Below the pieces are notes generated by a model. The model had not been told where the DNA came from and searched no databases. It saw nothing but the letters and a program-made list of their open reading frames with translations. DNA of 10,762 nt from a virus: the UHGV virus genome UHGV-0242546; one strand, given 5' to 3'. Each line of letters opens with the position of its first letter. Positions within the stretch are counted from its first letter, which is position 1. Positions 1,289 to 10,762 of the stretch are shown here, piece by piece. The position numbers and the translations under genes are program-made.

Positions 1289-2356
1289 ATGAGTCAACAT
1301 CAATATTATCCACAGCTGAAATGGAAGCCTGCTGAATATGAATCTCTGATGCTTTTAGATCAAACTACGCTCTCTGGTTTTACTCCGATCATTACCATTC
1401 CAGACATAGACTGGGATTATGAAAACGAATGCTACAAGAAGAGTTTGAGTTCTTACTTATCTGACTTCGGTATTAACCTTGCGGCATCCTGGAAAGCCAA
1501 TCGTCCTGTTTTGCTGGATGTTAAATATTTAGATAAACATGGTTCGAGCCGCCATCATCCTCTAGATATGTGTATCCAAGATGCTAGAGTAAATGGTAAG
1601 GAAATTATCCCTGTTGTTTCTCCCGCATATTCAACAAACTATATACATGCTGTTCAACGCAACTTAATCAATGGGCTCGCTATATCTATCACCCCCCAGA
1701 CATGGCACCAATTCACAAGTCTGGTTAACCACTTAAATATTCATCCTAGTTTAATTGATGTAATCATTGATTTTGGAGATATTCAAAACGCAACTGATAG
1801 TTTAAAACAACAAGCATTAAGCATGGTCAACACATTATCAGGCCAAGCTCCGTGGAGAAACTTGATTTTATCTTCAACCGCATACCCAGCATCACAGGCA
1901 GGGATACCGCAACATCAAGTTCATCATATTCCGCGCCATGAATACGATCTTTGGATGTACGTAGTACAGAATTTTAGCAATGGAAGAACGCCAAGTTTTA
2001 GTGATTATCCCACCGCTAGCTCTACCATTACGAGCGTAGACCCACGCTTCATGTCTCAGTATGTCTCAGTGAGATATTCGAACGATACCTCATGGATCTT
2101 TGTAAAAGGTACCGCAGTTAAAGGAAATGGATGGGGCCAAACTAAAAACTTATGTACTACCCTTGTTAGTTCGCCAGAGTATCAAGTCTTTGGTTCCAAA
2201 TTTAGTTGGGGGGATGATTACATTTACCAAAGATCATTAGGCGCTAACAAATCTGGCGGCTCTAAAGAATGGCGTAAAGTTGCACATACGCACCATATTA
2301 CGTTAGTCGTGAGACAGCTTTATTGGTTGGCGCAGACTCAGCCTGCCAAGCCTTAA
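1289..2356 (+). CDS. Hypothetical 355-aa protein, AT-rich cargo gene, no recognisable catalytic motif; possibly a sce7725/Beta-protein-like partner (unverified)
   Basis: Long ORF with a strong Shine-Dalgarno (TAAGGAG, 5-nt spacer) before ATG 1289. Codon usage and GC content are clearly lower than the flanking phage backbone. It lies between the lysis-operon terminator and cos, the classic lambdoid moron position (bor/lom slot). Family assignment cannot be made without a profile search. Confidence 0.8.
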   Translation: MSQHQYYPQLKWKPAEYESLMLLDQTTLSGFTPIITIPDIDWDYENECYKKSLSSYLSDFGINLAASWKANRPVLLDVKYLDKHGSSRHHPLDMCIQDARVNGKEIIPVVSPAYSTNYIHAVQRNLINGLAISITPQTWHQFTSLVNHLNIHPSLIDVIIDFGDIQNATDSLKQQALSMVNTLSGQAPWRNLILSSTAYPASQAGIPQHQVHHIPRHEYDLWMYVVQNFSNGRTPSFSDYPTASSTITSVDPRFMSQYVSVRYSNDTSWIFVKGTAVKGNGWGQTKNLCTTLVSSPEYQVFGSKFSWGDDYIYQRSLGANKSGGSKEWRKVAHTHHITLVVRQLYWLAQTQPAKP

Positions 2357-2918
2357 CTTTCCAGCCTACGCGTTTCTTTAAGGCTGTTCTGACTTCAAGC
2401 CTGAGATTCGCTATTGGAATATTTTCCGCAATAATATTCCATAACTCAAATCGGGGCTTGCTTTTGATTCCTTTGGAATAGCCCCATCGTTCAAGTACGT
2501 CGATACATTCATCTTTCCAAAGCAATTGAGCGAGCATCAATGTGTCATGGTTTCGATTAAGCTTTTCTCCACGCATGTGCTTTATAAGAATGGCGCCTTT
2601 TGGCCCAACAGAAACCGTTTTAACGCCCCACCAACCTGGGATTAACTTTAATGCTCCCTCAAGATGTTTCTCAGCTACGACAAGAGTAACCTTGTCCATT
2701 ACAGAAGAATAATGCTTGATTTGAAGAGGCAAACGCTCCAAAGAGTCATATTCACTTTTGAGCTCGTACCCGTGTATAACACCATTTATTACAGCAATGT
2801 CTGCTCTACTGGCGCCAAGGGATATGGAAAATTCATCGACCACAAGGCAGTCTGGATCTAAATGCGATTCTTTCAAAAGCTTATGATGCACCGCGAACCT
2901 AACATCTTGATCTTTCAT
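2298..2918 (-). CDS. Hypothetical 206-aa protein with a PD-(D/E)xK nuclease-like motif arrangement, AT-rich cargo gene
   Basis: Strong Shine-Dalgarno (AAGGAG, 5-nt spacer) upstream of ATG 2918. Residues ~28-54 read VVDEF...SRADIAVINGVIHGYELK, i.e. acidic residue, then D, then E-x-K with restriction-endonuclease-fold spacing. Convergent with, and overlapping by 59 nt, the 3' end of the 355-aa gene. Confidence 0.8.
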   Translation of the reverse strand: MKDQDVRFAVHHKLLKESHLDPDCLVVDEFSISLGASRADIAVINGVIHGYELKSEYDSLERLPLQIKHYSSVMDKVTLVVAEKHLEGALKLIPGWWGVKTVSVGPKGAILIKHMRGEKLNRNHDTLMLAQLLWKDECIDVLERWGYSKGIKSKPRFELWNIIAENIPIANLRLEVRTALKKRVGWKVKAWQAESAPTNKAVSRLT

Positions 2919-2980
2919 GACTTCTCCTTACTCCCTCCGTTATTGAATTATAGCGCACTGCATTTTACTGCATTTGAGAG
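2919..2980 (-). promoter_or_regulatory. Putative promoter of the 206-aa gene: perfect -10 TATAAT (plus 2947-2952) preceded by a tandem direct repeat AATGCAGT x2
   Basis: Minus strand reads ...CAAATGCAGTAAAATGCAGTGCGCTATAATTCAATAACGGAGGGAGTAAGGAGAAGTCATG. The TATAAT lies 28 nt upstream of the ATG. There is no good -35 hexamer; instead the -35 position is occupied by two tandem AATGCAGT copies, a possible regulator binding site. Confidence 0.35.
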
Positions 2981-3266
2981 ATTTGACCACTTCAATCACA
3001 AAATGCTTATCTGCAGCAACAAGATTCATAGCCATACGACTATGGTGATTACCTTTTGTCTGGAAAACTGACCATTCCACGAAGATCAGATAGGTCTATA
3101 GAATCTTGGTTTGTCATAGCGTTCGCCTTACTTTGAGATGAACCTTTGCTGCATAGGAGATCAGCCCGTCAAGGCTCACCAGCACTAACTGACTACTCAA
3201 AGGCTCATTCCAAAGGGTTTGGTTCGACGTGGTTGAGTGCACTGCGGTGCGCGGTGAAATACCTGT

Positions 3267-3300
3267 ACAAAAATGCCCCGCATCTGCGAGGCATTTTCCT
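3267..3300 (-). terminator. Rho-independent terminator downstream of Rz/Rz1 (end of the lysis cassette); hairpin is near-bidirectional
   Basis: Minus-strand RNA AAAAUGCCUCGCAGAUGCGGGGCAUUUUUGUAC forms a GC-rich stem followed by a U5 tract, about 35 nt after the Rz stop at 3335. Confidence 0.6.
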
Positions 3301-3334
3301 GAAAGTCACGTATTAAATTTCAGTGAAATTAAAA

Positions 3335-3772
3335 TTATTTTAAGCACTGCGTCCTGATGTACTCCTGCAGGTAGTTGACCTGCGCGGTTATCTTGTCGAT
3401 TCCACTTCGGAGACGGTAATAATTGAGTTCAGCATCTGCTGTAAGTCTTGGGCTTTCTCCATTGCCCATGCCGCTGGCTCCGGTCGTTGACTTTGCACAG
3501 GTAGCGGCGACTTGCAGGCGCTTACGCCCAGCAGAAACATCAGCACGGAGGCTTTCGATAGTCGCGTTAGCATCAGCAAGCTCCTTTGTATATCTGGCAT
3601 CGAGTTCTGCTACGTCACGTTGACGCTTCTGCATATCAGCGATTGTGGATGTGGCTTTATCGCGCTGCTCTTTGTAGGTTATGGCGTTATCACGGTAATG
3701 ATTCAGCCCCAGACTAAGCGCACCACAGGCCACCAGCAGGGCAATGATGACCACGCACAGTACGCGGTTCAT
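3335..3772 (-). CDS. Rz: Rz i-spanin (inner-membrane spanin subunit), 145 aa
   Basis: Protein starts MNRVLCVVIIALLVACGALSLGLNHYRDNAITYKEQRDKA (N-terminal TM anchor then coiled-coil periplasmic domain), the typical Rz architecture. It is the last gene of the lysis cassette and has an embedded +1-frame lipoprotein ORF. Confidence 0.85.
   Translation of the reverse strand: MNRVLCVVIIALLVACGALSLGLNHYRDNAITYKEQRDKATSTIADMQKRQRDVAELDARYTKELADANATIESLRADVSAGRKRLQVAATCAKSTTGASGMGNGESPRLTADAELNYYRLRSGIDKITAQVNYLQEYIRTQCLK
3388..3573 (-). CDS. Rz1: Rz1 o-spanin (outer-membrane lipoprotein), embedded out of frame within Rz; ~61 aa precursor
   Basis: The +1-frame ORF inside Rz encodes MLTRLSKASVLMFLLGVSACKSPLPVQSQRPEPAAW...: signal peptide with lipobox (V-S-A-C) followed by a proline-rich mature peptide, as in lambda Rz1. 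The ORF track gives the longer version (3388-3600); the start at the second Met is chosen on signal-peptide logic. Confidence 0.7.
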   Translation of the reverse strand: MLTRLSKASVLMFLLGVSACKSPLPVQSQRPEPAAWAMEKAQDLQQMLNSIITVSEVESTR

Positions 3773-3773
3773 T

Positions 3774-3911
3774 TCACCACCAGCGTATCTGACCGATGAA
3801 ATAACCGGAGGCCATAATCACAAACACCAGCCAGATAAGAATGAACTTCCAGGTGGATAATTTTTCAGCCATCACTCGAATCTCCCGAATCAGTTTGCTA
3901 AAATCAAACAC
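3774..3911 (-). CDS. Small putative single-pass membrane protein (45 aa from GTG 3911, or 32 aa from ATG 3872), translationally coupled to Rz
   Basis: AGGAG Shine-Dalgarno 6 nt upstream of GTG at 3911. Product MFDFSKLIREIRVMAEKLSTWKFILIWLVFVIMASGYFIGQIRWW has one clear hydrophobic helix. Its TGA stop lies 1 nt before the Rz ATG. The long N-terminal extension in the 89-aa track ORF is Lys-rich low-complexity and contains a hairpin, so it is probably non-coding. Confidence 0.4.
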   Translation of the reverse strand: MFDFSKLIREIRVMAEKLSTWKFILIWLVFVIMASGYFIGQIRWW

Positions 3912-3947
3912 ACTTTCTCCTTTGACTTTTCCGGAGTCAGGAAACAC

Positions 3948-3981
3948 AAAACCCCGCTTGCAGCCAACAAACGGGGTTTTT
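3948..3981. terminator. Terminator-like hairpin between endolysin R and the small membrane ORF; strand ambiguous (T-tract is better on the plus strand)
   Basis: AAAACCCCG-(15-nt loop)-CGGGGTTTTT. The 9-bp stem is flanked by an A-run on one side and a T-run on the other. On the minus strand (gene direction) the stem is followed by UUUUGUGUUUCC. Confidence 0.45.
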
Positions 3982-4070
3982 ACTTTTATTCTCTTAGTTT
4001 TTGTCAGTTCGCAGGATTTCGTGTTATCCGTCCGTGTGAGCAAACCGCATTTTTCAGCAAAATATTCTGC

Positions 4071-4604
4071 TTATCTGTCAATTCCCCAGCACGCCAGCGC
4101 ACTCTCCTGGTCGCGACGGGATACCTGACCGTAACAGTTGTTTGAGCGAATACGGCAGTCTCTGCCACCGACCTTAATCCACCAGCGAATCGCCTCACAC
4201 GCTCCCCTGCGATCACCTGCATTAATTCGTTTATAAAACGTCGACGGAAAACACTTACCGGGGCCAATGTTGTACGGACAGAATGACGCGATCCCCGCTT
4301 TCTGGGGTTCACTCAATGGCACTCTGATGTTTTTCTCCACCCATGCCAGCGCCTTATCACGCTCAATGGCGTTAACCCGGTCGCATTTTTCCTTCGACAA
4401 CTTCATGCCCGGAACGACAGGTTTGCCATCCACCAGGATGGCACCGCGGCAGATGGTCCAGATACCCGCGCCATCACGGTATGCCGTGGTGTGGTTACCT
4501 TCCTTTTCATCCAGAAACTGGTCGAGAATGTCAGGCGCAGGCGCACCAGCGGCAATCAGCGCCAGAACGGCAGCCGACAGGCCGTATTTGATTTTGGTGT
4601 TCAT
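4071..4604 (-). CDS. R: SAR endolysin (phage-21 R-type lysozyme, T4-lysozyme fold with N-terminal signal-anchor-release domain), 177 aa
   Basis: N-terminus MNTKIKYGLSAAVLALIAAGAPAP is a weakly hydrophobic, Gly/Ala-rich SAR-type segment. It is followed by EGNHTTAYRDGAGIWTICRGA, the E-x8-D-x5-T catalytic-triad spacing of T4-type lysozymes. It sits downstream of a pinholin-type S. Confidence 0.9.
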   Translation of the reverse strand: MNTKIKYGLSAAVLALIAAGAPAPDILDQFLDEKEGNHTTAYRDGAGIWTICRGAILVDGKPVVPGMKLSKEKCDRVNAIERDKALAWVEKNIRVPLSEPQKAGIASFCPYNIGPGKCFPSTFYKRINAGDRRGACEAIRWWIKVGGRDCRIRSNNCYGQVSRRDQESALACWGIDR

Positions 4605-4667
4605 GGATATTTATCAGGATTTATCGGTTTCTGCCCACGGACAGGTTTATCTGTTCCGGTCAGTGAC

Positions 4668-5018
4668 TTAAGGTTGTGATTCCGGAGGAGTCTTCAGAGA
4701 ACCAGTAATTCTTCCCGGTAGCTTTCCTTTGTAGGTTATCCATACATTCTGCGCCTCTAAAATTACGGGGCGCTTTTCCGGCGACTGCTCATCCCCTTCA
4801 CATAACCCGGCAGCAACATCCAGGAAGACCTGTCTGATGCTCCTTCTGGCTGCTGCCTCATAAAACTCCAGCGCGGCACCTTCAACACGGTCCAGCGAGA
4901 TGTCCAGGTCAAAAATTTCACCGTCAAAGCGTTTTTTGTCCCGTAACGCTAAAGTTACCGTAACTTTATTCTCAAAATTGCGGATCCCTTTCACAATCAG
5001 TTTATAGTTTTGAGTCAT
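4668..5018 (-). CDS. Hypothetical phage protein located between holin and endolysin (YdfR/DUF1327-like by position), 116 aa
   Basis: ORF with ATG at 5018 starting 4 nt after the holin stop. From memory, E. coli cryptic prophages carry a DUF1327 gene (ydfR) in the same holin-endolysin slot. The family call is positional and recalled, not computed. Confidence 0.65.
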   Translation of the reverse strand: MTQNYKLIVKGIRNFENKVTVTLALRDKKRFDGEIFDLDISLDRVEGAALEFYEAAARRSIRQVFLDVAAGLCEGDEQSPEKRPVILEAQNVWITYKGKLPGRITGSLKTPPESQP

Positions 5019-5022
5019 TGAA

Positions 5023-5238
5023 TTACTCTCCCCGTGCAGCCTTACGACGGTCCTCTCTGATTTTGAAATACAGGTTAGTCAGATATGTCAGCAGCCCAAA
5101 CAGCAGACTCCCCAGCACGCCTATTGCCGCCCACTGAGACGGGGAAACCCTGTCCAGCAACTGCAGGAACCAGTAGCCCGTTCCCACCGCTGACGTGGTG
5201 TATGACACACCTGTTGTGATTTTTTCCATCTGGTACAT
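5023..5238 (-). CDS. S: Pinholin S (phage 21 / 933W-type class II holin), 71 aa, dual-start motif MYQM
   Basis: [71 protein letters not shown] closely parallels S21 as recalled (...[25 protein letters not shown]...[20 protein letters not shown]). Two Met codons three codons apart are typical of a holin/antiholin dual start. The 106-aa track ORF is an upstream extension. Confidence 0.85.
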
Positions 5239-7463: not shown

Positions 7464-7469
7464 GTCCAT

Positions 7470-7705
7470 AAGAAAGCCCCTCCGGAGAGGGGCTAAAGCC
7501 GCGTATCTGTATCATCATGCACATGGTGCCGGGTGCCTCCCGGTGAGTTCAGCCCGGTGCCACTAAACCCGCGTCATTCTCGTTTTGATAATCAGAGATT
7601 ATACCGTCACCAGTCGCCCCTCCGCTCAGGGGGATTCACCATGCGAAATTTTTTTAACAAATGCCCAGTCTGACAGGCAACTGTCAACTTACTGAATTGT
7701 GAGCA
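7470..7705. repeat. Direct repeat copy A of a ~230-bp structured non-coding element
   Basis: Shares conserved blocks with copy B, in the same order with divergent spacers: AGAAAGCCCCTCCGGAGAGGGGCT, CATGGTGCCGGGTGCCTCCCGGTGA(G/A)TTCAG, GCCCCTCCGC(T/A)CAGGGGGATTCACCATGC, TTTTAACAAA, CTGAATTGTGAG. Confidence 0.7.
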
Positions 7706-7767: not shown

Positions 7768-7956
7768 TGGAAGGATAGCGGTCATGTGATGCCGGTTTCC
7801 CGGTAACTCAGCACCGGTATCTGAGTCAACGTTTTCTCTACTGGGTCATTTCCGATACGCCCTGCCTGCTGACAGGCTTTCATCACATCTGAAAATATAG
7901 CACCCTGACTGATACTGTAGTACCTAAGGTTCCAGAAACTGTGATGTATCCGGCAC

Positions 7957-8175
7957 AGAAAAGCCCCTCCGGAGAGGGGCTGGAGAGTGGCGCTATGTGC
8001 CATTGCATGGTGCCGGGTGCCTCCCGGTGAATTCAGTACCAGCACCTGAATCCGCGATTATCCCATATACCTACTCGCTGATTGCCCCTCCGCACAGGGG
8101 GATTCACCATGCCAGTTTCTTTTAACAAACTCCCCGCAAACCAGACAACAGTCAACCGCCTGAATTGTGAGACAT
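7957..8175. repeat. Direct repeat copy B of the ~230-bp structured non-coding element
   Basis: See copy A. Same conserved blocks in the same order, immediately downstream (in transcription sense) of tRNA argO and its terminator. Confidence 0.7.
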
Positions 8176-8216: not shown

Positions 8217-8293
8217 TGGCGCGTTGTACTGGATTCGAACCAGTGACCGATTGCTTAGAAGGCAATTGCTCTGTCCGGCTGAGCTAACAACGC
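8217..8293 (-). tRNA. argO: tRNA-Arg (anticodon UCU, reads AGA), phage argO-like
   Basis: Minus strand GCGTTGTTAGCTCAGCCGGACAGAGCAATTGCCTTCTAAGCAATCGGTCACTGGTTCGAATCCAGTACAACGCGCCA folds as a canonical cloverleaf: 7-bp acceptor stem, GCTC/GAGC D-stem, anticodon loop CTTCTAA, T-loop TTCGAAT, encoded CCA. Confidence 0.9.
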
Positions 8294-8306
8294 AGGATAC
8301 AGATAA

Positions 8307-8383
8307 TGGACCGCCTTCGGGGACCCGAACTCCGCGCAACCAGCTTCGAAGGCTGGCGCTCTTTCCTGATGAGCTAATGGCGG
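8307..8383 (-). tRNA. argN: tRNA-Arg-like (anticodon UCG as read, would decode CGA), phage argN-like, with non-canonical features
   Basis: Minus strand CCGCCATTAGCTCATCAGGAAAGAGCGCCAGCCTTCGAAGCTGGTTGCGCGGAGTTCGGGTCCCCGAAGGCGGTCCA. Cloverleaf is recognisable (GCTC/GAGC D-stem, anticodon stem CCAGC/GCTGG, loop CTTCGAA, encoded CCA), but it has an A-A mismatch in the acceptor stem, one T-stem mismatch and G instead of the conserved A58. Confidence 0.7.
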
Positions 8384-8390
8384 TATGTGA

Positions 8391-8466
8391 TGGTGGCCCT
8401 TGCTGGATTTGAACCAGCGACCTGGCGATTATGAGTCGCTCGCTCTCACCACTGAGCTAAAGGGCC
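8391..8466 (-). tRNA. ileZ: tRNA-Ile2 (anticodon CAU, lysidine-type, reads AUA), phage ileZ-like
   Basis: Minus strand GGCCCTTTAGCTCAGTGGTGAGAGCGAGCGACTCATAATCGCCAGGTCGCTGGTTCAAATCCAGCAAGGGCCACCA is near-identical to E. coli tRNA-Ile2 (ileX) as I recall it; anticodon loop CTCATAA. Confidence 0.9.
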
Positions 8467-10139: not shown

Positions 10140-10762
10140 CTATCGCGTTACCCTCTTTAACTGCCGCTCCGCCCATGCCTCTTCAATGTCAAACCGAACC
10201 ACCAACGTATCGTAAAAGCGTTTCACTGATTTTTTCCACGTATCAAGCGTGATAGCACTCGTCACTTTGCATATGGCATTAAATGCCTCCGTTGATGGTA
10301 GTCTTTCACAGCCACGACCACCACAACGCTGGCAGTCTCTGATAACAGGCATACCACGTTTTACCGACTCTTCACGATGAATGGCGACACCACGCCCACG
10401 GCAATCCTTACAGGCGGTGGAAACCTCACCCTTTCCGCCACACTCCGGACAGGCAACTTTTACCACCTCCCTGACTTTTTTCCATTCTTCCCAGTAAGAC
10501 GGATACACACCTTTCGTACACTTTGCCCATACCGGCGGCTTACCATCCGGATACCAGAACAGGTCGAAGTAATACCCGCACGTTACCTCCAGATGCGCTG
10601 CTGGAATGTGCGGGACGAGGCCGGATTCGACCTGAACGCCTTCCTCGACGAACTCGAACTGTCTGACCCGGTCGAAGCCATACACACCGTTTCCCGCGAC
10701 CTGACGCTGGGGGCAATCTTGCCGCTGGCCAACGGCGGCGAAACCAACGCATGGCTTATCCA
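10140..10762 (-). CDS. Q: Late-gene antiterminator Q (lambda-Q family, zinc-finger); reading frame open to the window edge, true start uncertain (GTG at 10685 or beyond the window)
   Basis: C-terminal half CKDCRGRGVAIH...CQRCGGRGCERLPSTEAFNAICKVTSAITLDTWKKSVKRFYDTLVVRFDIEEAWAERQLKRVTR parallels lambda Q as recalled (CRDCHGTGRAV...CGRCKGVGYSRMPASAAYRAV...TWSRTVKPLYDALVVQCHKEESIADNILNAVTR). A pR'-like promoter follows immediately downstream. The track ORF starts at GTG 10685, but the frame has no stop between there and 10762. Confidence 0.8.
   Translation of the reverse strand, partial: DKPCVGFAAVGQRQDCPQRQVAGNGVYGFDRVRQFEFVEEGVQVESGLVPHIPAAHLEVTCGYYFDLFWYPDGKPPVWAKCTKGVYPSYWEEWKKVREVVKVACPECGGKGEVSTACKDCRGRGVAIHREESVKRGMPVIRDCQRCGGRGCERLPSTEAFNAICKVTSAITLDTWKKSVKRFYDTLVVRFDIEEAWAERQLKRVTR

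Follow-up and report, generated by a model that had tools for sequence, protein, structure and literature searches.

The morons that Juhala and colleagues are said to have described in lambdoid phages in 2000 reportedly carry a promoter of their own upstream and a factor-independent terminator downstream. The S gene of phage lambda combines a dual-start motif with the sdi RNA structure and gives the holin S105 and the antiholin S107, and type I toxins comprise Hok, TisB and similar peptides. Among small phage membrane proteins, HK97 gp15 is an inner-membrane superinfection-exclusion protein (PMC3594210), Mu gp25 is a releasin with DUF2730 that serves as a small transmembrane accessory lysis factor (PMC9239132), and Lcc6 of Shewanella LambdaSo is a small accessory lysis protein encoded outside the lysis cassette (bioRxiv 10.1101/2024.01.23.576932), so that the location of such a gene need not predict its role.

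The locus that we compare with these systems is found in virus genome UHGV-0242546, of which the whole 10,762-nt stretch analyzed here is called the window. With moderate confidence, we favor the reading that positions 3774-3990 on the minus strand form a mobile late-operon cassette encoding a tail-anchored microprotein, with throttled translation and probably with a conserved host or membrane target. The gene belongs to a family that is already catalogued (phrog_6632); its organization as a leader-coupled portable cassette appears to be undescribed, and full-text searches with peptide strings or the accession, as well as the supplements of two small-ORF surveys, yielded no paper that contains the peptide.

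Starting from the Q antiterminator, the window continues with a DNA methylase gene, three tRNA genes and two STnc100 copies, a SASA esterase gene and the S holin gene, followed by YdfR/DUF1327, R, the small ORF, Rz/Rz1, a convergent gene pair and Nu1 (Table 1). The lysis genes share one orientation with Q upstream, and the phage genes from 10685 to 336 are all on the minus strand except within the convergent pair. A first-pass annotation of the window had reported an ORF of 32-45 codons between R and Rz, with an AGGAG before its GTG and a stop 1 nt from the Rz ATG, and each of these elements is present (GTG 3911, ATG 3872, TGA 3774); the identities it had assigned to the flanking S, R and Rz genes, including a SAR-like segment in R, were likewise upheld by their family matches. 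A single base separates the small-ORF TGA from the Rz ATG at 3772, and translation of the small ORF would therefore presumably deliver ribosomes to Rz as well. The in-frame internal ATG at codon 14 is itself preceded by GGGAG at 3886-3882, 9 nt upstream.

Table 1. Features of the cassette and its surroundings in the window, and small ORFs found behind the same leader elsewhere.
Feature	Position	Strand	Description
Small ORF	3774..3911	-	45 codons plus stop; GTG 3911-3909, TGA 3776-3774
Small-ORF peptide, 45-codon form		-	Translation VFDFSKLIREIRVMAEKLSTWKFILIWLVFVIMASGYFIGQIRWW
In-frame ATG, codon 14 of small ORF	3870..3872	-	Would yield a 32-codon form
Shine-Dalgarno AGGAG	3921-3917	-	5 nt 5′ of the small-ORF GTG
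Leader	3912..3990	-	Conserved, ~80 nt, travels with the small ORF
Two-tier helix	3916..3944	-	UUUCCU:AGGAGA plus UGACU:AGUCA; would sequester the Shine-Dalgarno AGGAG of the GTG
Hairpin 1	3948..3980	-	Intrinsic-terminator-like stem of 14 pairs, then UUUUGUGUUUCC
R-stop-to-leader spacer	3991..4070	-	Common only to lambdoid relatives (SPN3UB, other E. coli prophages)
Rz i-spanin	3335..3772	-	PF03245, phrog_13
Rz1	3388-3600		Embedded within Rz, different frame
R, phage lysozyme	4071..4604	-	PF00959, phrog_7; SAR-like hydrophobic segment at N-terminus
YdfR/DUF1327 gene	4668-5018	-	
S, S21-type holin	5023-5238	-	PF04971, the P21 holin family
Q antiterminator	10140-10685	-	PF03589
Convergent gene pair, 3′ of Rz	1289-2918		Member 1289-2356 on the plus strand
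Type B small ORF behind leader			MKGIEVETPASLDLTRAAAFAIRIVAIAVLVWAIRWW; phrog_4493
Type C small ORF behind leader			phrog_1115
Type D small ORF behind leader			phrog_4906

The small ORF is a genuine conserved gene under purifying selection. Its product is identical to RefSeq WP_000459345.1 ("hypothetical protein") and matches phrog_6632 over the full length (residues 1-45 on positions 1-45 of 45, E 6.4e-30), so that its description as unannotated holds for a gene track with a 60-aa threshold and fails for some RefSeq genomes and for PHROGs. For example, NZ_CP024155.1, which shares 99.7% DNA identity with the window, has a 138-nt CDS between the lysozyme and a "lysis protein"; the CDS is annotated in 11 of the 25 best-matching RefSeq records and omitted in the others. 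Searches of the peptide against Pfam and NCBIfam gave no match. It also lacked a match to the holin families of PHROGs, Pfam and NCBIfam, among which the window's own S does match PF04971, and to the releasin families of PHROGs and Pfam, with no DUF2730 domain. The PADLOC defense library had no match for the peptide or for its type B, C and D neighbors.

The family is widespread. Using tblastn, we identified the peptide in 53 phage records, among them three from Salmonella phages, two from Pseudomonas phages, H-19B and phages of the Stx1a, Stx2a and Stx2c types. When each species was represented by a single genome, a scan located it in Citrobacter, Yersinia, Edwardsiella, Sodalis, Brenneria, Pantoea, Providencia and Trabulsiella, and beyond Enterobacterales in Pseudomonas and Azoarcus. 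Profile searches returned 101 clusters when grouped at 90% identity; at 50% identity, with 1.84 billion representatives searched, there were 74. At least 80% of the gene is carried by about 903 of 5426 E. coli genomes (~1 in 6 complete genomes), while a first scan of IMG/VR added only identical E. coli copies and no further diversity. The long "Rz" of H-19B was considered as a fusion with the small ORF and rejected, being a different, longer Rz allele that starts right after the small ORF.

Selection on the protein was estimated from Nei-Gojobori counts on close allele pairs, for which pN/pS was 0.10-0.25 in 8 of 11 pairs and higher, up to 0.61, in the other three. Codons 2-13, upstream of the internal ATG, had pN/pS below 1 in 9 of the 10 computable pairs, which places the long form under protein-level selection. 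No frame other than that of the small ORF stays open across all homologues, and the length of the family is held at about 45 codons, with truncated or frameshifted versions seen in five copies. Frame conservation was a result on which the first-pass annotation had staked its proposal beforehand, and the prediction held, with dN/dS well below 1. Together with the RefSeq and phrog_6632 entries, this supports its view that the ORF is a true gene for a small membrane protein, of a kind overlooked when short ORFs are cut off by length.

As for the shape of the product, residues 24-42 form the best 19-residue Kyte-Doolittle window (2.13), the sole strongly hydrophobic one, and the hydrophobic moment of residues 3-20 is 0.56. 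With 26 homologues as input, AlphaFold2 returned a helix at 4-17, a break at 18-19 and a second helix at 20-43 (mean pLDDT 82.8), in line with the single hydrophobic helix that had been noted from the sequence. The peptide is thus predicted to be a tail-anchored inner-membrane microprotein, with an amphipathic helix at 4-17 and a transmembrane helix at about 20-43, and its likely topology has the N-terminus in the cytoplasm and the anchor at the C-terminus. Enterobacterial members end in RWW. The membrane helix is the more variable part, and the N-terminal helix the most conserved (xDFSKLIRELRxMxEKLxxWKF). This helix is almost unchanged from E. coli to Pseudomonas while the phage neighbors differ, which suggests that it assembles with itself or contacts a target in the host or membrane, rather than S21, R21 or Rz.

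The gene has a weak start codon throughout. All 24 of the distinct nucleotide alleles first collected begin with GTG or TTG and none with ATG, and every A-type ORF behind the leader matches in IMG/VR also starts with GTG or TTG. All 18 of the aligned alleles have ATG at codon 14, with GGAG, GAGG or AAGGAA 8-9 nt before it; more distant homologues have I, L or F at this position, and a dual start is therefore plausible for the closer members only. Synonymous sites in codons 3-12 are near-frozen: AGC, AAA and GAG are each shared by 17 of 18 alleles, and Arg is encoded by the rare CGA in 17 of 17 codons. Later codons are saturated (pooled pS 0.40 for codons 2-13 vs 0.78 for codons 15-42). The pattern would fit a second internal start or another nucleotide-level signal. 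The near-frozen codons 3-12 are not accounted for by the reading as a mobile cassette.

A conserved RNA structure precedes the gene in all its contexts. Our covariance model of this leader (R1) matches the window at 3909-3989 on the minus strand with 73.6 bits, and the leader is found 5′ of every A-type ORF, in the window and at 39 other loci, with scores of 45-100 bits, in contrast to 17-43 bits at most on the reverse strand. Each context has the same parts at fixed spacing, namely an A-tract, a G+C-rich hairpin of 13-14 bp, a U-rich tract and a short helix beside the Shine-Dalgarno sequence. Hairpin 1, located 36 nt upstream of the small-ORF start, was picked up by a terminator scan, has a fold energy of -21.6 kcal/mol (z -4.4) and shows covariation, with 7 of 11 pairs changed on both sides. 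The two-tier helix of the window folds at -7.6 kcal/mol, no more stable than shuffles (z -0.7); its equivalents in 17 sequences are paired in 82% and 89% of cells, and compensatory changes are present. The outer helix joins a UUUC(U/C) tract to the (G)AGAA of the Shine-Dalgarno sequence across the family. The inner helix would bury the remainder of the ribosome-binding site; most members have it as CCUUG/CAAGG, the window as UGACU/AGUCA, Trabulsiella as CGUUA/UAACG and P. aeruginosa phages as CAUG/CAUG. Over the 17-sequence alignment as a whole, leader pairing reaches 90.7% of cells vs 81% in shuffled alignments and 41-63% when the partners are slid, and 12 of 20 pairs are changed on both sides. 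The hairpin has frequent G.U pairs on the sense strand, which would be A.C mismatches on the antisense strand, and we conclude that the sense RNA is the conserved entity. The structured leader was absent from the first-pass annotation.

Several other descriptions of this region were tried. Rfam has no family at the leader, the sole match being a rimP leader on the opposite strand with 26.8 bits against a gathering threshold of 47 (E 0.15), and RNAalifold on the leader plus 90 nt of the ORF recovered hairpin 1 only. Antiterminator-type pairing between the 5′ region of the ORF and hairpin 1 was rejected, since the two sequences are similar rather than complementary and show no covariation. We also discarded an Hfq-binding anti-sRNA of the AgvB/AsxR type formed by the R-Rz spacer and the hairpin, with no Rfam match here and conservation only from the hairpin onward; AgvB and AsxR are found elsewhere, in the interval that separates the pR′ moron from the holin region (PMC4104026). 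Scanning for sigma-70-like promoters gave none on the sense strand in 3300-4700, in a consensus scan that could miss an atypical promoter, and a sigma-70 or sigma-54 promoter within the leader was dismissed for want of an acceptable -10 or -12 element upon manual inspection of the alignment. Upstream of the hairpin, nothing is conserved across contexts.

The best placed alternative, although we consider it unlikely, is that the peptide is a dedicated part of the lysis cassette that modulates the triggering of the pinholin, the release of the SAR endolysin or the activation of the spanin, possibly with dual-start isoforms like lambda S107/S105. At lysis junctions, the order is endolysin, ORF, i-spanin, and the ORF lies directly 5′ of the i-spanin in at least eight differently composed cassettes, usually 1-4 nt away or overlapping. 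The same junction attracts other small single-helix ORFs, the two potential in-frame starts each have a Shine-Dalgarno sequence with RNA structure over the first, and precedents for small accessory lysis proteins exist in Mu gp25 (PMC9239132) and LambdaSo Lcc6 (bioRxiv 10.1101/2024.01.23.576932). Recurrence 5′ of i-spanins of different families could therefore signal a functional tie to lysis. Against a dedicated lysis part, the partners vary from case to case while the peptide's own N-terminal helix is constant: the upstream endolysin may be a GH24 SAR lysozyme or belong to phrog_873, GH108, GH19 or Peptidase_M15_4, the last four without a hydrophobic SAR segment at their N-termini; the downstream spanin may be PF03245, DUF2570/LysC, phrog_312 or phrog_1026; and the accompanying holin is PF04971 or the pair Phage_holin_8 and Phage_holin_3_7. 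Many close prophages lack the gene, as the E. coli count above indicates, no holin or releasin family matches it, and Met14 gives way to I, L or F in distant members.

Copies in virion modules also speak against a dedicated lysis part. SEN34-like myoviruses of Salmonella, Pantoea and E. coli have the ORF between the baseplate spike and a sheath-initiator/wedge gene, Yersinia similis has it in another baseplate module, and Y. enterocolitica in a tail module with a Phage_Tail_Tip gene. In P. aeruginosa prophages it lies between tail-tip genes K and I (732 collection blocks in the index), in P. reactans after a tail assembly gene, in Sodalis and P. fluorescens beside tail-fibre genes, and in a T7-like Azoarcus phage between internal virion proteins. 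The ORF is co-oriented with the surrounding late genes in every copy. Judged by these arrangements, the gene is evidently not specific to pinholin or SAR endolysin, and it is apparently mobile between unrelated phages with its own leader. The proposal that it is a functional part of a phage-21-type S-R-Rz system was not sustained: its relatives stand beside non-SAR endolysins, other holins and at least four spanin families, as well as among virion genes at a distance from any lysis cassette. The observation made in the first-pass annotation is therefore confirmed, and its interpretation partly supported.

Next in plausibility, and likewise doubtful, is a classical moron expressed from the prophage to the benefit of the lysogen, for example by superinfection exclusion as with HK97 gp15. 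The cassette adds DNA between genes that are direct neighbors in relatives, and the R/Rz junction is a hot spot for other cargo, with overlapping genes in relatives that lack the cassette. In K-12, rrrQ/rzpQ and rrrD/rzpD overlap, and the homology of the Qin rrrQ to the window's R ends at 4061; in Klebsiella phage ST16-OXA48phi5.2, the V/W genes overlap where SEN34 has a cassette of ~240 nt. Homology across contexts runs for about 215 bp, from the A-tract before the hairpin to the stop codon, and sequence comparison places the spacer 3991-4070 outside this mobile core. The gene has moved horizontally across phage types and host genera and uses known hot spots, namely the R-Rz junction that is occupied by ant in Stx2 phages and, in P. 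aeruginosa prophages, the tail region from K to I, which is rich in morons.

Exchange of cargo behind the leader also bears on the moron reading. In other E. coli prophages this leader precedes small single-helix ORFs of other kinds, single or in arrays (types B to D in Table 1). One tail-fibre region of P. fluorescens holds three leader copies, one of them before a 48-residue peptide ending in YVIRWW, which a leader-linked peptide of Dryocola resembles, and IMG/VR adds a leader-linked type that ends in VVRWW. N-terminal and C-terminal halves recombine among the leader-linked peptide types, as an arms race would predict. In contrast to what is expected of a prophage-expressed gene, there is no promoter-like element on the sense strand in or beside the conserved module, the terminator-like hairpin is upstream and not downstream, and the occluded Shine-Dalgarno sequence and the non-ATG start argue for low rather than constitutive expression. 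The peptide has no homology to HK97 gp15 (hhalign probability 0.3%) and has the opposite topology.

It is very improbable that the locus is a type I toxin-like module, in which an antisense RNA terminating at the bidirectional hairpin would repress a toxic hydrophobic peptide. In favor of such a module, the product is short and hydrophobic and its 5′ region is structured, TTTTTACTTTTATT comes after the hairpin when the plus strand is read, and the ORF contains one promoter-like site on the antisense strand (3789-3818). However, antisense promoters occur at chance level (1 found vs 1.0 expected), and upon inspection this site is not conserved in SPN3UB. The strand preference of the covariance model (17-43 bits reverse vs 45-100 bits sense) and the A.C mismatches that the G.U pairs of the hairpin would become on the antisense strand also speak against it, as does the lack of an Rfam match. 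Finally, we give almost no credence to a chance ORF or decaying remnant without function, since a short ORF that many gene callers skip and that has truncated and frameshifted copies nevertheless keeps its frame from E. coli to Pseudomonas and Azoarcus, its length of about 45 codons, a dN/dS well below 1 and a full-length PHROG profile.

Returning to the mobile late-operon cassette, we propose the following mechanism. The cassette would have no promoter of its own and would share a late-promoter transcript with S, R and Rz, with Q-modified polymerase reading through hairpin 1. Without antitermination, the hairpin, the occluded Shine-Dalgarno sequence and the weak start codon would jointly hold expression low. 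The stable hairpin might also let the leader fold alike wherever the cassette lands, independent of the upstream sequence. For SEN34-like myoviruses, an efficient terminator would harm a baseplate operon that has no antitermination, and the hairpin may therefore be weak or otherwise used. The peptide would enter the inner membrane by its C-terminal end and expose its conserved helix to the cytoplasm, where late in infection it may oligomerize or contact some conserved component of the host or membrane. Candidate outputs are changes in membrane energetics or lysis timing, the exclusion of other phages, or some other action on the host; lysis timing may be affected in a general way.

As a more speculative extension, which we think rather improbable, all such leader-microprotein cassettes (the A-type and its IRWW-ending kin behind the same leader) would make up an undescribed class of portable late membrane regulators. 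The leader would set the ratio of long to short isoforms, and the helix would act on a host inner-membrane target, tuning energization and the lysis clock regardless of the type of holin, endolysin or spanin.

The cassette may matter for Shiga toxin-converting phages, as the gene is present in Stx1, Stx2a and Stx2c converting phages and in H-19B with inconsistent annotation. Release of Shiga toxin depends on phage lysis, and the peptide would bear on release if it is true that membrane state or lysis timing is affected. More generally, genes for small membrane proteins can spread among unrelated phages as self-contained units with their own translational control RNA. At about 215 bp, and with clear predictions for start, leader and topology, the cassette is an easily testable model, and a covariance model and a peptide profile are now available for annotating others.

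Compared with described systems, the peptide is of the same family as phrog_6632 and WP_000459345.1, with no sequence difference; those entries contain no note on function, leader or mobility. Like type I toxins, it is short and hydrophobic and has a structured 5′ region predicted to limit translation; it differs from them in that no conserved antisense RNA or promoter was found, in its place within a phage late operon and in having no Rfam or Pfam match. Similar to lambda S, it is a small membrane protein of a lysis cassette with two potential in-frame starts and an RNA structure over the upstream ribosome-binding site, yet the starts are 13 codons apart rather than 2, there is one transmembrane helix rather than three, the family has no holin match and is not confined to lysis cassettes, and Met14 is not universal. 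Mu gp25 and Lcc6 are likewise mostly cytoplasmic single-pass proteins of less than 100 residues, and they act together with pinholin and SAR-endolysin systems or have their genes close to them. Their transmembrane helix is N-terminal, while that of the small peptide is C-terminal with no sequence relation, and related prophages often lack the peptide; unlike with Mu gp25, partnering with a SAR endolysin is true in the window and not across the family. The transmembrane helix of HK97 gp15 is N-terminal as well, and again the sequences are unrelated. From morons, the cassette differs in having no detected promoter of its own, a terminator-like hairpin upstream and the Rz ATG 1 nt downstream, while it shares with them the insertion of DNA between late genes, a small single-pass membrane product and horizontal spread.

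Within the small ORF, the 45-codon membrane-peptide gene between R and Rz, synonymous sites of codons 3-12 were found to be nearly invariant from E. coli to Pseudomonas, with at least 17 of 18 alleles sharing each of the codons AGC, AAA, GAG and CGA, the last a rare codon for Arg; synonymous sites elsewhere in the gene were saturated. None of the explanations tested for this nucleotide-level constraint covers all of it. The spacer between the R stop codon and the leader, the structured RNA element of about 80 nt that travels with the small ORF, is conserved among lambdoid relatives (L101 and L102, E. coli prophages, and L003, Salmonella phage SPN3UB). In these three loci it harbors short perfect palindromes of differing sequence (CGTTGGCCAACG, GTGGCGCCAC), and the corresponding site is degenerate in the window. 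A P. fluorescens prophage (L121) carries three leader copies inside 2.1 kb of its tail-fibre region, and the small ORFs that follow them, all with TTG as start codon, differ from copy to copy.

Coordinates of features in the window and comparison loci
Feature	Locus	Position	Strand	Remarks
Small ORF codons 3-12	window	3882-3905	-
R stop-to-leader spacer	window	3991-4070	-
Convergent gene pair	window	1289-2356; 2298-2918	+; -	between Rz and Nu1
YdfR/DUF1327 gene	window	4668-5018	-	116 aa; between holin and endolysin
Two STnc100 sRNA copies and three tRNA genes	window	7464-7673, 7951-8141, 8220-8466	-
Small-ORF array	L101, E. coli prophage	2642-2755		R-Rz junction
Small-ORF array	L102, E. coli prophage	2713-3061		R-Rz junction
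Small-ORF array	L103, E. coli prophage	2577-2905		R-Rz junction
36-codon ORF (MSKRDVSALCFLMAAAVAISGNDGWGWLIFAGIIIL)	L003, Salmonella phage SPN3UB	2239-2349		unannotated
Heat-labile enterotoxin type II-like A and B subunit genes	L112, E. coli prophage	1977-3117		PF01375, PF06453
Leader copies	L121, P. fluorescens prophage	1155-1238, 2920-3003, 3196-3274

At the R-Rz junction, other E. coli prophages were observed to hold one to four differing small single-helix ORFs apiece, which belong to PHROGs 4493, 1115, 3246 and 4906; some lack annotation, and several end in an IRWW terminus immediately 5′ of the Rz ATG. The start codon of the SPN3UB ORF overlaps the stop codon of the lysozyme gene as ATGA, and the ORF matches phrog_14810 weakly. 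Upstream of the small ORF in L112 (E. coli AP025754.1 prophage), the enterotoxin-like genes form an insertion in a lysis cassette, between two endolysin genes.

Elsewhere in the window, one gene of the convergent pair is a Beta_protein (PF14350), annotated as a beta family protein, and the other is annotated as a sce7726 family protein. Both matched PADLOC models (PD-Lambda-2_C, E 4e-32; ‘beta’; ‘cll’, E 4e-31), and the pair, which occupies a prophage hot spot, is a candidate module for defence against phages. The STnc100/tRNA cluster is located upstream of the lysis genes, flanked by a methylase on one side and a SASA esterase on the other, with both STnc100 copies full-length (165 and 136 bits). 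The YdfR/DUF1327 gene is a further non-canonical insert in the S-R-Rz lysis cassette of the window, as it is in that of K-12 Qin.
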